Assembly: GCA_963827275.1 (NCBI GenBank)
Contig: CAWHAA010000005.1
Coordinates: 1-64,000, forward strand
Direction of reading: 5' to 3'
Source of the DNA: an uncultured Spirochaetota bacterium
Lineage (GTDB): Bacteria; Spirochaetota; UBA4802; UBA5550
Length of the DNA stretch: 64,000 bases
In this document: in pieces, positions 37,401-58,400 of the stretch
Numbering within the stretch: position 1 is the stretch's first letter
Layout of the letters: each line of letters begins with the position of its first letter
Made by a program: the position numbers

Positions 37401-40400
37401 CATTTTGGCCGGGTTACATCATGTCCCGTCTCATGAACGTGACCGCGCCGGCATACCGCTTTTTCCAGTAGGGATTTCTCATGTCAGTGCTGGTCACCCG
37501 CTTGCCGGAGCTCGGCGCGTGGATGAACCGGCGGCCCCCCATGTAGATGCCCACGTGCGACAGGCGGCGCTTCTTCGATGTCCTGAAAAACACCAGGTCA
37601 CCCGGCTTCGCCTGCCCGAGACGCACCGGCCTGCCCGCGTGATACTGGCCCTTCACCGAACGCGGCAGGAGGATGCCGTTTTTCTTGTATACGTACATGA
37701 CGTATCCCGAACAGTCGAACCCCCGCGGCGATTCCCCGCCGTAGCGGTACGGCACTCCCCTGTATTTCTCCGCGGTACGGACAATGCGGCTGCCCTGGTC
37801 CATGCGGGTGAACCAGCCTGTGCTGGCGCAGCCCGTCAGGTTCACAACCGCTATTGCCAATAGCAATGATGCTGAAAAAAGCCGTTTTTTCATTATCCAA
37901 TACCGTTGGCCGGCCCTATCGCAGGGATGCCCTGAGACCGGGCGGGTCCAGTATATATATCGTACCAATATGTGGGGATATGAATCAATTAATGATGCCA
38001 CCGATCATGGGGAGGGTGTGCGCGGGAGCCGCTTTGCTATTCCCTCTATCGCCGGGCGGCGAGATGGGCCGGCCCGGGCCCTGGCATAGGGGGGCCGTTA
38101 CACGACGGCCCCCCTATGAACCCCCCGCGTGGTCGCTCAAACGCCGCGACTGCCTCCGGGCGTAACTCGTGCGAATCCCGCTTCGCGGGAATTCGCCCTC
38201 ATACAGACGCCCGATTGGTTTGTCCGCCTTCGGCGGACGTTTTAATGGCTTTGTTCTGGAATGTAATACGTTATTGAGGAAGTTGTGGCCAGAAGACGCA
38301 TACTGTCCGCTTCGATGGCGTTGACGCGCCGATCTCGCAACGCCGCACCTCGTGTGCGGCGAATGACAGCATAGCAATGACATAAGTTTTTGACCAGAAT
38401 AGCAATCCCGCATAATACACAGACGCCCGAATTGTCCGCTTCGATGGCGCTGACGCGCCGATCGAAGCGAGGCTTCTCCCGGACGATCCCCGCACCGCTT
38501 GTCATGATCTTTCCGGAAGGCCATACCTCAAGCGCGGCACGCCAGTCAGGATGACTTAGTGCGGCGCTCGCACAGGAGGTGCGAAAAAAGCGCCGCCCCG
38601 TCAACCTGGCTTCGCCAGGTTTGGCCATGCGTGGGCACGAGGCGAAGTTTACCAGCATATCCAAAATATTAATATTGACATGCATCTACCATGTATATAT
38701 ATTGTATATACTCAATAAAGAGGTGCCGCATGATAAAAAGAATGGTGCAACATGGAAATAGCTCTGCTCTGATAATTGATAAACCCATAATGGAGCTATT
38801 AAATATTGGCCCTGAAACGCCGCTGGAGATCGCTACCGATGGCCAAAATATTATAATTTCACCGGTGCATGACTCCACAAGAATGGACCGGCTGGAAAAG
38901 GCATTGGGAAAGATCAATAAAAAACATAACTCTACCTTAAGAAAATTGGCCAAATGACACAAAGACCAATTGAATTTATAACCCTGGCAGAAGTTATTGA
39001 AATACATAAAGATCAAACAAGACTCTATGGCGGCCCCGAAGGCATCAGGGATGTTAATCTGCTAACTTCAGCGTTAGCCCTGCCCAAATCTACATTCGAT
39101 GGGGAATACCTGCATAAAAATATATTTGAAATGGCGGCAGCATATGCCTGTCACCTGTGCCAGAACCATCCGTTCATTGACGGGAATAAGCGGGTGGCCC
39201 TGGTGACTGCCCTGGTGTTTTTAGAATTTAATGGCATTGAAATCGATGATCCAAAGGGGCTCTTATATAATGCCATGATGAATATTTCGGAAGGTAAAGC
39301 CGGGAAAAAACAAATAGAAGATATCTTCCGCAAATTGTCAAACAACTGACCTGTAATATTATTATAAACCAGATGACTTATGGCAATAAGCCGGTAAAAA
39401 CTTCACGCAACTAACACTGCCCTGCTTTTTGTGGCCACGAAAAGCGGCCCCGTGCCCCGCCTTTCCGGCAACTGTAGCGAAGCAGAGTCAAAAATGCATA
39501 TCAGCGGACAGCTGTGCTAAAATCCGGAATAACGAGCACCCTCACAACGGGCTCCGGATGCCCTTAAGCTGCGGATCATAGACCTTTGTATATATCGAAG
39601 TCGTGGTTATGTTCTTATGGCCGAGCAGCGCCTGTATGTGCCGAAGCGATATGCCGTTCTCGAGCAGGTGCGTGGCAAATGTATGCCGGAGGTCATGCGG
39701 CGACGCCTTTTTATTGATGCCGGCCTCCCTGAGCGCCCTCTCCAGCACCTTCTGCACTGTCCTTCCGGAAAGGGCATGGTGCCTTCCCTGCCTGTCCGTG
39801 CCGGACGAAAGGAATATGAACTCGTCACCACGCTTCCCATCCATAAACCGTCTCAGGTCATCGACAATCTTATCGGAAAAAATGGTGATGCGGTCTTTTT
39901 TCCCCTTCCCCTCCTTCACGTGAATCGACAGGCGCTCACAATCGACGTCCCGCACCCTCAGGCTGAGCAACTCGGAGAGCCTGAGCCCGGACGAGTAAAT
40001 AAGCGCGATCATTGTCCGGTGCTTCAGGTTTTTTATGCTGTCCAATATTCTCGCAATCTCGCCCCGGGTAAACACCACCGGAAGGTGCTTCGAATTCCGC
40101 ACTCCTTCAACAAACGAGAGGTCGATTGTCATGTTCAACATGTTATTAAAATAATACGCGAGCGCGAACCTGTACACTCGTACCGTCGATGCGGATGCTT
40201 CCCTGTCATTATTCAGATAAAGAAAAAACGCGCGGAAATCTGCATGATCCATATCGTCAATGTGTTTATTTTTTTTTGCCATGCTCCAGGCATGGATCAT
40301 TCGCACCGCGCTTAAATAAATTTTTATGGTTTTCCGCGAATATCGTTTCAACTTGAGCGTTTCTTCAAACTCTGTATACTGCCGCGGCAGTGACATCGGT

Positions 40401-55400: not shown

Positions 55401-58400
55401 GGGGCGCTCGGCTCATTTTTCGGCGCTTTTAAGTTTCAAATAAATTCTTCTTGCAAAAATGCTTATAACAGGCTAAATAACTTTTAGCAGCCAGGCCTCA
55501 AAACGACGGTTATGCTTGAACGCTATATGCAATTGCCCCATTTTATATAGAATAGAAAAATATAGTATAAATATTACAAAAAAATTGTGCATATAAATTA
55601 TGTCTGTAGATTATAACCAACTATCAAAACAATATAAAAACTATAGAAGACCTGACACTCGGATTTTAAGGCAAATACAATATTATCTTCAAAATGCTCA
55701 ATGTATTTTAAATGTTGGAGCTGGTATTGGATCCTATGAGCCTGTAGATAGTAAAGTAGTCGCCATCGAACCATCTTTTGAAATGATTTCAAAAAGAGAT
55801 AATTCAAAAGCACTTTTGGTACAAGCAATTGCCGAAAAGCTGCCTTTTAAAAATAATATCTTTGATTGCTCCATGGCAATTTTAACAATACATCATTGGT
55901 CAAATGCAATTTCTGGTCTTAAAGAAATGATCAGAGTTACAAAATATAAAATTGTCTTATTTACTTGGATTGGATATGGCAATAACTTTTGGCTAGAGAA
56001 TTATATACCCGAAATTATTGGAATTGATATAAAATTATTTCCAACAATAGATGAACTTAAACGAATACTTGGAAATGTCATAGTTGAAATTGTTGAAATA
56101 CCTTATGATTGTACAGATGGATTCATGTGTGCCTATTGGAGAAGACCGGAAATGTATTTGGATCCAAATGTGCGGAAGGCCATATCTACTTTCTCACGCA
56201 TACCCGAAAATCCCGAGGGACTAAATAAACTACGAAAGGATATTGAAAGTGGCGAATGGTATAATAAGTACAGCTATTTGCTTGATAAAGAAACTATTGA
56301 TTTAGGATATAGATTAGTTATATCTGAAAACAAAGAATGGGGCAACTGCACATAACAAAGCACACCCGCTGCGCGCGGCCACAAGAAATGAAGCTGTGGC
56401 CGTGCTCGGCCTGCGGCACACCGCGCCTAAGGGAGGAAGACGGGCCCGGCGGCGGCTATGCTGGAACGTTGTTCGAAACCCGGCGGTTTTGAAATTTGAG
56501 AGGAACTCTTTCATAATGAAAAACTTCAAGTTTAAGAAAATCGATGCTTTTACAGATAAGTCATCTCATGGCAATCCGGCAGCTGGCATTTATTTAGATA
56601 ATCTTAATGATATTTCAGACATGGAAATGCTAACTATAGCCAGTGAACTTAAAGGTTTTGTCAGCGAAGTTGTATTTCTATTTCCAGAGAAGGATGGATA
56701 TTTTTTAAAATACTATTCTTCTGAATGTGAAGTTGAATTTTGCGGCCATGGAACTATTGCAATAATGTTTGATCTGATTAAAAATAGCCCGAATCTTTTA
56801 GATGAAAAAGTCATCAATATTAGAGTTAGAAACGAAAATCTTAAAATCTATAATCAAATTAATAATAATAACTCAATTTTTATAACTGCCCCAAACCCGA
56901 CGTATCATTCTTGTAATATTAATCATAATGATCTAATTTCTTGTCTAAATATTTCTTTAGATACAATTAATAGCAATCTGCCAATTGATATAATAAATGC
57001 CGGACTGAATACTCTAATTGTACCAATTATAAATCTTAATAAATGCCTTAATGTGAAGCCTGACCAAGAAGTTCTAAAATATTTCTGCCTGGACAATACT
57101 ATTGATATAATACATATCTTCACAAATGAAGTATCGAAAGGAACCAATAATTATCGAACAAGAGTTTTTGCTCCAAAGTATGGGTATTTGGAAGATCCGG
57201 CAACTGGTTCTGGCAATTCTGCCTTTGGGTATTATTTATTGAAAAATAACCTATGGGCTGGACAATTACTGAAAATTGAACAAAATAAAGAATATGAAAT
57301 GTCTAATTTGGTGAAATTAAATACGGTAATGTTAGATAATAAACTACGTGTTTTATTTGGCGGCTCCGCAACACTAAAAATAGATGGAGCATATACTTTA
57401 TATTAAGGAATTATCGCCGATATTCGCACAACATAGCATAGCCGATCCGCTCCCCGGCGGGCTTGGGCCTCCTGCGGTGCGCTGATCAGGGTGATCGAGT
57501 GTCGAGCCGCAACAGAAGGGTGCAGAAAGGCTCAACCTCGGCACTCGCGCTTGCATCGCCATCCATGGCATCGAATAATAATAGACACGGGCCAATGTAA
57601 TGTTTAATGAACTACTTGAAATCAACAGACGGCCAAAACCATTTGAATATTATACTGCTCCAGAATTATGGACGGACGGGCACACCTCTCAAAAAATGCT
57701 GGAGTTTCATTTGAATGAATCAATTGATGTTTCATCAAGAAATATCAATTTCATCAACAAATCATCCGAATGGATAATAAGCCATTTCGGTCTTGATGCC
57801 GCATCCAAAATAATTGATTTTGGATGCGGCCCGGGACTTTATACCTCCCGTTTTGCCAGGAAGGGCATCCACGTAACCGGCATAGATTTTTCAAAGAGAT
57901 CAATTGAATACGCAAAGCAGGCCGCGCTGAACGAAAAACTTGACTGTGACTATATTTGCTGCAATTATCTTGATTTTAAATCATCGAATAAATTCAACCT
58001 GATAACCATGATCATGTGTGATTTTTGCGCTTTAAGTCATGATCAACGAAGGATCATGCTGGGTAAGTTCAAAAATATTTTAACACCAAATGGATCAATA
58101 CTGCTTGATGTCTATTCCATAAACTTTTACAATGCAAGTAAAGAAAAATCCATATATGAATTTAACCAGCAATCTAATTTTTGGTCAGCGGATGATTATT
58201 ATTCTTTTCAGAATACTTTTAAATATGATGACGAGAAAGTTATTCTTGATAAATATACAATTATTGAAAAATCACGAAAACGTGTTGTCTGCAATTGGCT
58301 GCAATGTTTCAGCGTTGATTCATTGAAGAAAGAATTCGAGGAAAATGGCCTGAAAATTATTGAAATATTTTCAGATGTATCAGGATCAGAATACAGACAG

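Follow-up and report, generated by a model that had tools for sequence, protein, structure and literature searches.

What kind of system is formed by a tyrosine recombinase gene and the AT-rich array that diverges from it in an uncultured spirochaete? The window analysed, a 64,000-nt stretch of one contig, had been interpreted in a preliminary description as an island of the rAID-1 type, in which orphan immunity genes are stockpiled between copies of a 472-nt presumed recombination site. Much of the underlying description was borne out: the recombinase is encoded on the minus strand, divergent from the array, and matches Phage_integrase (2.9e-43) and Phage_int_SAM_4; the first four ORFs have a GC content of 0.20-0.275; two IS3 copies and one IS481 copy lie in the array; and the Doc/Fic pair is present. 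The interpretation itself held in part.

The recombinase

The gene was counted from the ATG common to its homologues; the longest ORF starts earlier, at TTG 40744. The catalytic set is complete (RKHRHY: R226, K251, H321, R324, H347, Y356), and the ~35-amino acid insertion that contains helix I2 in IntI is missing. The span from R256 to H321 is 66 residues versus 101-102 in 10 IntI proteins (a comparison leaving out two loci with short ORFs, L029 and L045), the alignment against 2a3v has a gap where the insertion sits, and the TIGR02249 score is 214 bits, below the cut-off of 265, with profile positions 180-228 unmatched. All 31 aligned homologues likewise lack the insertion and have intact catalytic residues. 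The closest fold was that of VchIntIA (2a3v; Foldseek 1.3e-15, VIA Z 22.5), with XerA nearly level (VIA Z 21.5, tied within 1); the XerA profile NF040815 reached 217 of 220.

An extra helical N-terminal domain of ~65 residues is kept in 31/31 aligned homologues. When it was searched for, Foldseek returned nothing at E≤0.001, the Atlas scored no higher than 0.76, and the best VIA Z was 5.7. Several of the top rows were recombinase core-binding domains, which is a lead only; no HARP fold appeared among the structure-search rows. The recombinase is the one candidate integrase in the genome, and an IntI profile search of the genome returned nothing above cut-off, although at 92% completeness an IntI gene may have escaped assembly.

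Cassettes, hairpin sites and the attI-like site

The array resolves into ~18 cassettes (Table 1) and continues to about 58570 rather than ending at 56400 as previously described. Fifteen attC-like hairpins of 123-306 nt were found, of which 12 exceed the attC length range of 57-141 nt in PMC5027507. All 15 folded better than shuffled sequences (z -2.0 to -9.2). The cassettes are bounded by hybrid sites with RYYYAAC and GTTRRRY cores, and the start of a cassette is complementary to its own end at 105/121 positions across 11 distinct cassettes; permuted pairings averaged 66.4 (sd 5.3), and 0/200,000 permutations scored as high. Kin arrays repeat this matching (18 cassette pairs, 5 genomes). As far as sequence can tell, this complementarity is the signature of circle integration.

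Table 1. Features of the recombinase locus (positions along the contig).
Feature	Position	Strand	Details
Insertion-less IntI-like tyrosine recombinase	39542..40657	-	371 aa
Palindrome, possible operator	40707..40727		upstream of recombinase; one half kept in 21 aligned upstream regions
attI-like site	40810..40839	+	inverted L box, 4-nt spacer, crossover G40827|T40828
Cassette 1, gene-less, type A	40828..41300	+	site 41127-41306
Cassette 2, gene-less, type A'	41301..41772	+	site 41599-41778
Cassette 3, 237-aa ORF 41892-42605, no family	41773..42837	+	site 42664-42843
Cassette 4, gene-less, type A	42838..43309	+	site 43136-43315; 4 differences vs cassette 1
Cassette 5, gene-less, type A'	43310..43781	+	site 43608-43787; 6 differences vs cassette 2
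Cassette 6, second gene-less kind, AT-rich	43782..44491	+	site 44318-44497; ends common to cassette 3
Cassette 7, Imm63 orphan immunity gene 44525-45034	44492..45214	+	site 45047-45220; PF15599 7e-25
Cassette 8, 194-aa ORF 45299-45883, no family	45215..46200	+	site 45959-46206, 248 nt
Cassette 9, 162-aa hydrophobic ORF 46375-46863	46201..47023	+	site 46858-47029
Cassette 10, gene-less, type A	47024..47495	+	site 47322-47501; 2 differences vs cassette 4
Cassette 11, gene of unknown function 47548-49989, IS3-split	47496..50119	+	site 50003-50125
IS3-family element, copy a	47871..49069	-	NF033516; more copies elsewhere in genome
Cassette 12, RelE-like 87 aa + HTH_3 122 aa, probable toxin-antitoxin pair	50120..51073	+	site 50901-51079
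Cassette 13, sixth gene-less copy	51074..52482	+	interrupted by IS481, ended by IS3 copy b
IS481-family element	51170..52338	+	NF033577; 7-bp target duplication; 99.9% full-length copy on C6
IS3-family element, copy b	52483..53681	-	identical to copy a; flanks without duplication
Cassette 14, 5' end lost, DMT/YdcZ exporter 53690-54142	53682..54449	+	site 54318-54455; PF04657
Cassette 15, second RelE-like/HTH pair	54450..55522	+	chimeric 306-nt site 55223-55528
Cassette 16, methyltransferase 55600-56355	55523..56468	+	site 56350-56474, weak fold
Cassette 17, PhzF-family 56516-57406	56469..57599	+	site truncated after 57426
Cassette 18, degenerate, methyltransferase 57600-58439	57600..58569	+	decayed site from 58498

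The 472-nt unit consists of a 292-nt body and a 180-nt site, with five intact copies and one broken. Period-472 TRF arrays (40827-41780 and 42662-43789) and other direct copies at 47030-47321, 51080-51169 and 52338-52483 confirm the repeats, and a search of the rest of the genome found no copy. They are not separators between genes, however: that role falls to the 15 hairpin sites, some of them unrelated to the repeat by copying, and the match reported at 44313-44504 is related to the repeat through its site only, without a full unit. Read in this way, the 472-nt repeat is an amplified empty cassette and not the recombination site it was presumed to be. An assembly artefact is unlikely as its source, because the copies fall into two consistent types differing at 2-18 positions. 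The body folds strongly (cassette 2, z -5.3 on the plus and -5.8 on the minus strand). A search of 63 other family genomes found no convincing relative of it, only two 24-31-nt matches (E about 0.006-0.008), so that a conserved RNA is unsupported; Rfam over 36000-62000 gave nothing but one chance match (E 0.95). Gene-less cassettes of the Vibrio superintegron are likewise ORF-free, and most of those tested carry promoters according to 10.1101/2023.11.21.568050; the array here has six copies of one kind, the entire body of which folds strongly. This cassette, too, may carry a promoter, or may be merely selfish. The body of cassette 6 has no open frame longer than 59 codons wholly within it.

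The stretches 48994-51248 and 53606-55599, previously described as having no called gene, hold the 3' part of the IS3-split gene, two RelE-like/HTH pairs and the DMT exporter. The IS3 element in cassette 11 is flanked by a 4-bp target duplication, and the two gene parts share one frame by length; copy b probably caused an adjacent deletion. The cassette 12 toxin falls with RelE-like clusters in the Atlas (0.97) and its partner matches HTH_3. The cassette 15 site has mismatched arms and an altered core triplet.

Site geometry sets the array apart from canonical attC. Its inner stem has register +3 in 13/15 sites (+4/+3 in kin) and is unbroken, whereas canonical attC sites have a 5-6-nt central spacer per arm, and the canonical controls showed register 0 then -1 in 35/50. 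The canonical extrahelical bases near L'' are absent; where canonical sites have an L-box extrahelical base and an outer stem of about 8-9 bp, the array sites have an asymmetric loop of 3-4 nt and an outer stem of 17-20 bp. Position 11 is never Watson-Crick paired, and is G/A (G-T on the bottom strand) in 26/29; compensatory changes were found among 22 distinct inner stems. A generic, noisy ungapped hairpin detector, since superseded by folding and targeted tests, gave a +3/+4 excess in insertion-less groups (74+51 versus 26+30 shuffled) and no signal for short rAID and canonical sites.

Beside the recombinase, a GTTRRRY core, the integron attI criterion, is present in 21/21 aligned upstream regions, with the GTT and the C and A of the L box kept in all 21. 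The attI-like site lies 150-184 nt from the recombinase start across these regions, and its L/R symmetry peaks at a spacer of 4 (84/147, next best 42). No copy of the nearby palindrome was found upstream of lexA or recA, so that it is unlikely to be a LexA box; many integrons, though not all, place the integrase under LexA control. A check for a Pc-type promoter gave consensus-like sites only; some of the aligned kin have a TTGAC-like hexamer ahead of attI.

The locus could instead be a canonical integron's orphan array (CALIN), or else an island in decay, beside an unrelated recombinase or a degenerate IntI, and the IS damage, the decayed distal sites and the incomplete assembly are compatible with this. 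We regard it as improbable, given an insertion absent throughout the catalytically intact homologues, an attI at a fixed distance in 21/21, and site geometry unlike canonical attC both in the window and in kin. The locus is probably an insertion-less, integron-like platform for gene capture on the chromosome, with a recombinase, an insertion site and swappable cassettes. Like canonical integrons (IntI, attI, attC), it has a recombinase that diverges from the array, a crossover at G|TT, R''/R' cores and hybrid sites that form hairpins; its cassettes include gene-less and toxin-antitoxin ones, and the best structural match of its recombinase is VchIntIA. Unlike them, it lacks the IntI insertion and has the extra N-terminal domain.

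Cargo, relatives and the rAID-1 comparison

Within the same genus, 15/16 genomes have a recombinase match (E<1e-100 in 14). Sites upstream of the recombinase, on the opposite strand, were found in 10/29 kin genomes, and downstream sites in none of the clade. In the 19/29 without a detected site, many have <1 kb of upstream DNA, yet locus L303 has 14.6 kb and no site passed the filter. Downstream synteny is weak (4/45 pairs), and the platform is therefore not fixed at one locus. The cassette 15 toxin is 90% identical to an ORF of the kin array at L303, and the cassette 18 methyltransferase 72% identical to one within the kin array at L301.

Cargo bears directly on the proposed stockpile of immunity genes. 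The Imm63 domain was confirmed, but the reported GC of 0.37 came from an ATG called inside the upstream site, and the value is 0.269 from 44525. Immunity domains occur in 1/13 cassette genes here and 0/45 in kin arrays, versus 12/39 in rAID control loci. Kin arrays carry toxin-antitoxin systems, methyltransferases, GNAT, HEPN and AbiTii; PADLOC run on 10 proteins gave generic HTH matches only, for 2/10. As annotated, the array carries what integrons generally carry, namely toxin-antitoxin pairs, methyltransferases, exporters and unknowns, along with one orphan immunity gene.

In passages of 10.1101/471110, the definition of rAID-1 asks for two or more co-directional genes downstream of the recombinase, and for a recombinase >44% identical to that of B. 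fragilis. Here the array is upstream and divergent, as in 10 kin genomes, and the recombinase core is 36-39% identical to those of nine recombinases from the rAID clade; these are proxies for BF9343_RS08045, two of them from P. gordonii MS-1, a strain named there by Ross et al. A common clade with the rAID recombinases was rejected (p-AU 0.006). A true rAID-1-type island stockpiling orphan immunity genes would account for the low GC, the repeats, the Imm63 cassette and the site geometry in common with rAID-like repeats, and could hide unrecognised immunity proteins among the 5/13 cassette genes without a family; nevertheless, orientation, identity, phylogeny and cargo leave it very improbable, and the rAID-1 reading appears largely refuted.

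The kinship that had been proposed does stand. In both systems the recombinase is insertion-less and has the same core domains, the arrays are low in GC (the first four ORFs here fall within the rAID limit of 41% or lower) and the intergenic sequences are repetitive, the 15 sites here being about three times longer. rAID sites are about 50 nt with an ATT core, and their cargo is rich in immunity genes, unlike here. rAID-like repeats nonetheless act like cassette sites: their register is +3, and starts match their own ends (5.35 versus 3.19). They are small sites of the same geometry, which places both systems in what we take to be one insertion-less integron-like superfamily. rAID-1 would thereby gain a concrete mechanism, with cassette circles and a defined crossover.

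Recombination mechanism and ancestry

In the proposed mechanism, the recombinase would excise cassettes as circles via two attC-like sites and insert them at the attI-like site, with crossover between G and TT, so that each array site is a hybrid of two cassettes, as the sequences show. Repeated re-insertion at attI would have amplified the 472-nt cassette. Most likely the bottom strand of the site is what recombines, in folded form, because the pairing covaries with sequence, the attI and attC spacers differ, and the wobble and loop make the strands unequal. The G-T wobble and asymmetric loop may stand in for the extrahelical bases, which would be read by the I2 helix that this enzyme lacks, and a single strand exchange would be resolved by replication, by analogy with integrons. 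The bottom strand folds better in 10/10 circle-form sites, by a small 1.4-8.1 kcal/mol; the top strand was better in 1/15 array-form sites.

Tn916-type integrases tolerate mismatched overlap regions, and the same cassette system might work on double-stranded DNA, with two strand exchanges, mismatched overlaps tolerated, and the complementarity a relic of cassette making. The symmetric Xer-like attI core with its 4-nt spacer and the near-threshold XerA profile score fit such a scheme, as does an enzyme without I2, which, in passages of PMC7790495, serves to prevent a second exchange on hairpins. Against it, complementarity covaries per cassette both over 17-20 bp and along the inner stem, and the mismatch at position 11 persists as G-T on the bottom strand; together these point to continuing selection on the folded strand, and we consider double-strand recombination unlikely. 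The platform reading with folded-strand use has points counted against it as well: the same passages report I2 as necessary for IntI1 cassette capture, Cury et al. (10.1101/030866) concluded that recombinases without I2 near attC are not IntI, and there are the site-less kin genomes, the small strand advantage, the weak synteny and the incomplete genome.

In the recombinase tree (28 of 60 rows; L019 labelled Xer-like), IntI joins the spirochaete and CPR rows with no more than 86/91 support, and a single clade of all insertion-less rows was not rejected (p-AU 0.25). One tentative scenario is that the spirochaete clade is a surviving pre-I2 integron near the canonical IntI root, with divergent layout, attI and single-strand hairpin recombination already present, the bottom strand chosen via the asymmetric loop and G-T wobble, and the long outer stem read by an N-terminal domain that is a duplicated core-binding-like domain. 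If so, hairpin recombination would be older than I2, and the same ancient superfamily would include rAID-1 as a specialised branch. In the prevailing view (PMC7790495), the I2 insertion is what enables integron integrases to recombine folded single strands, and intermediates are noted to be lacking. Because the enzyme here is intact yet I2-less, its attI is conserved, its sites follow rules and its cassettes were amplified recently, the I2 requirement is directly testable by standard integron assays.

Our literature search found no paper describing an insertion-less integron-like class. Passages of PMC8138268 on an integron-like tyrosine recombinase subgroup call the insertion essential for integron function and describe no arrays or sites. 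Integron finders need an IntI profile and a canonical attC model, implying that a gene-capture class goes unseen. Treponema chromosomal integrons (PMC3607928) share a spirochaete host and cassette arrays with this locus, and are set apart, by description, by their IntI and by attC sites of 63-132 nt with a protruding G.

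Cassettes and the gene-less unit

The GC profile bears out the preliminary description of a low-GC island adjoining a minus-strand tyrosine recombinase, and the two period-472 TRF arrays reported there were recovered. Its reading of the 472-nt repeat as the recombination site did not hold up; because cassettes match at their own start and own end, the unit is one whole cassette, consisting of a 292-nt gene-less body and a 180-nt site. Within the genome the body is confined to the island, with five complete copies and a sixth in two pieces. Both of its strands give strong folds (z -5.3, -5.8), and every copy has a weak promoter-like match. 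The 472-nt cassettes are of two types, A (cassettes 1, 4 and 10, counted outward from the attI end) and A' (cassettes 2 and 5), with 2-6 differences within a type and 12-18 between types; IS481 has inserted into the sixth copy, which IS3 also truncates. Re-insertion at attI would have amplified this cassette, two copies of which occupy attI-proximal positions. A repeat search showed that shorter repeat families recur between genes without the flanking 472-nt unit, bounded by an RYYYAAC-type box at the start and a GTTRRRY-type box at the end; in integron attC these boxes are the core and the inverse core.

Cassettes 3 and 6 have both ends in common, including small internal palindromes, and unrelated interiors; each lies after an A-A' pair of empty cassettes, which may be a clue to the way new cassettes arise. 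Small REP-like hairpins are repeated near the ends of cassettes and have a related 7-nt motif in the loop. Two genes that extend the plus-strand run past the last site remnant may be old cassettes whose sites have been lost.

Features of the island, its surroundings and a related locus (window positions unless a contig or locus is named)
Feature	Position	Remark
20-nt tandem repeat	19225-19322	5 copies, 96% match; outside array region
Doc/Fic toxin-antitoxin pair	38560-39500	far side of recombinase
Decayed right half-site	about 38560-38655	beside Doc/Fic pair
Decayed left half-site	from 39409	beside Doc/Fic pair
Recombinase start (ATG)	40657	set by homologues
Palindrome	40707-40727	upstream of recombinase
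Low-GC island	40800-58600
First cassette start	40828	~170 nt from recombinase start
Cassette 3	41773-42837	237-aa ORF
REP-like hairpins	41800-57580	e.g., 45244, 45905, 50144, 54470, 57551
Cassette 6	43782-44491	no ORF
FMN-reductase and DNA-alkylation-repair genes	58592-60168
Site fragments elsewhere in genome	C4:745370-746866, C5:441451-442126, C9:15559-18220	small lower-GC patches
Prophage-like block	L303:8255-15928	kin locus

Recombination sites and crossover

An anchored motif search found 15 complete left/right site pairs, plus remnants. The sites span 123-306 nt; 8/15 are copies of 172-180 nt or close to this size. Every site folds more stably than its shuffled versions (30 per site), with z from -2.0 to -9.2. 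If circles enter with a G|TT crossover, a left box is expected to match its own cassette's start, not the box downstream of it. Over 11 distinct cassettes, 105/121 positions matched the own start, against a permutation mean of 66.4 (sd 5.3), and none of 200,000 permutations reached this value. The match extends over 17-20 bp in the window, and over the same length in 18 pairs taken from five kin genomes (those with related recombinases), unlike the ~8-9 bp in 15 control pairs from canonical integrons. Position 11 was never matched; G stood against A in 26/29 cases, so that the bottom strand has a G-T wobble where the top strand has a C-A mismatch. For all ten circle-form sites the bottom strand gave the more stable fold, the margin being 1.4-8.1 kcal/mol. 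The main rival explanation is double-strand recombination tolerant of mismatches; in the mechanism we propose, the folded bottom strand would be used, with one strand exchange and replicative resolution.

The inner stem begins one base past the left core and is unbroken, with pairing register +3 in 13/15 sites, one of the others being +4 and one chimeric. Kin sites have register +4 or +3, and compensatory changes occur in the inner stem across 22 distinct variants. Canonical attC, as described in passages of PMC5027507, has a 5-6-nt spacer per arm, carries two or three extrahelical bases close to L'' and measures 57-141 nt. Among 50 selected sites from 81 loci around canonical intI, 35 had register 0, then -1 after one unpaired base; the extrahelical bases of canonical attC sit on the opposite arm from the extra bases of the sites here. 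The array sites are not canonical attC.

The attI-like site was defined by aligning 21 upstream regions, from the window and 20 kin (chosen for a full-length match, an identity of ≥47% and sufficient DNA). GTT is kept at the attI-like position in 21/21, with an inverted L box, and symmetry is highest at a 4-nt spacer (84/147; next best 42). The hairpin sites have a different spacer, and the two partners consequently lack common overlap homology, as do recombination partners in integrons. The upstream palindrome is half conserved in kin; no copy stands in front of lexA or recA.

The sequence shows where cassettes begin and end, the crossover point, the hybrid nature of the sites, a conserved attI and an intact enzyme; no other candidate integrase was found in the 92% complete genome. 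Cassettes would be excised as circles and inserted at the attI-like site by this recombinase. Decayed site halves flank the Doc/Fic pair, so the pair may have entered a secondary site as a cassette; the scattered site fragments on other parts of the genome probably are cassettes inserted in this way. The same pair adjoins the recombinase of kin locus L271.

The recombinase and rAID-1

The recombinase (371 aa) has 6/6 catalytic residues. The stretch that holds the IntI insertion is 66 aa long, compared with 101-102 aa in IntI (n=10), 61 aa in rAID-clade proteins (n=9) and 66-67 aa in Xer. TIGR02249 matches it below cut-off, at profile positions 4-179 and 229-313 only; two other matches in the genome are both Xer-like. 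In the AlphaFold model (pLDDT 81.9), VchIntIA is the best structural match, tied with XerA. A conserved, all-helical N-terminal domain of ~65 aa (pLDDT 86 folded alone) has core-binding domains of XerA, Cre and IntI among its top structural rows; with Z of 5.2-5.7 the likeness is weak and gives no more than a lead. None of the rows is a HARP fold. The tree is suggestive of a place near IntI (86/91), and monophyly of all insertion-less recombinases (those without the ~35-aa IntI insertion) is not rejected (p-AU 0.25).

By the definition in passages of 10.1101/471110, rAID-1 has a recombinase with >44% identity to BF9343_RS08045, co-directional genes downstream of it and a GC of ≤41%. Our proxy was a Parabacteroides locus carrying Tdi1 and SMI1/KNR4 genes, together with its relatives, including P. 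gordonii MS-1. Core identity of rAID-clade proxies to our recombinase was 36-39%; the two form separate clades, whose union was rejected (p-AU 0.006). Pfam immunity families account for 12/39 ORFs in six rAID loci, versus 1/13 here and 0/45 in seven kin loci. The rAID-like repeats (142 distinct sites of ~50 nt) nevertheless obey the same site rules, with best register +3 and an own-start match of 5.35/7 versus 3.19 downstream and 3.3 permuted (95 pairs). The earlier analogy with rAID-1 therefore stands for mechanism, not for membership or cargo.

Distribution and cassette traffic

In the same genus, 15/16 other genomes each have a single recombinase match at E≤1e-40, and for 14 of them E is <1e-100; named relatives are labelled Spirochaetota, in line with the spirochaete host of the preliminary description. 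Sites occur in 10/29 kin genomes whose loci were examined, in each case upstream, on the opposite strand; in many of the rest the sequence stops <1 kb from the gene. Two recombinases that are more distant (37-40%) are followed by co-directional arrays with register +2, and insertion-less recombinases in Chlorobiota, Ignavibacteriota and Bacteroidota loci are also flanked by register +3 sites. No description of insertion-less integrons as a class was found in the literature searched, subscription journals being mostly outside its coverage. New here are a divergent, genus-wide spirochaete branch with defined attI and quantified site grammar, the direct comparison with rAID and the suggestive tree position near IntI.

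Downstream genes are common to only 4/45 pairs. Cassettes travel, as the second toxin-antitoxin pair (90%) and the distal methyltransferase (72%) have relatives in kin arrays. Loci L308 and L309 come from genomes of the same family that carry a further, distant type of insertion-less recombinase, whose arrays are co-directional and whose sites have register +2. The prophage-like block, with one ORF that by eye resembles terminase, apparently interrupts the L303 array, and toxin-antitoxin ORFs resume beyond it.
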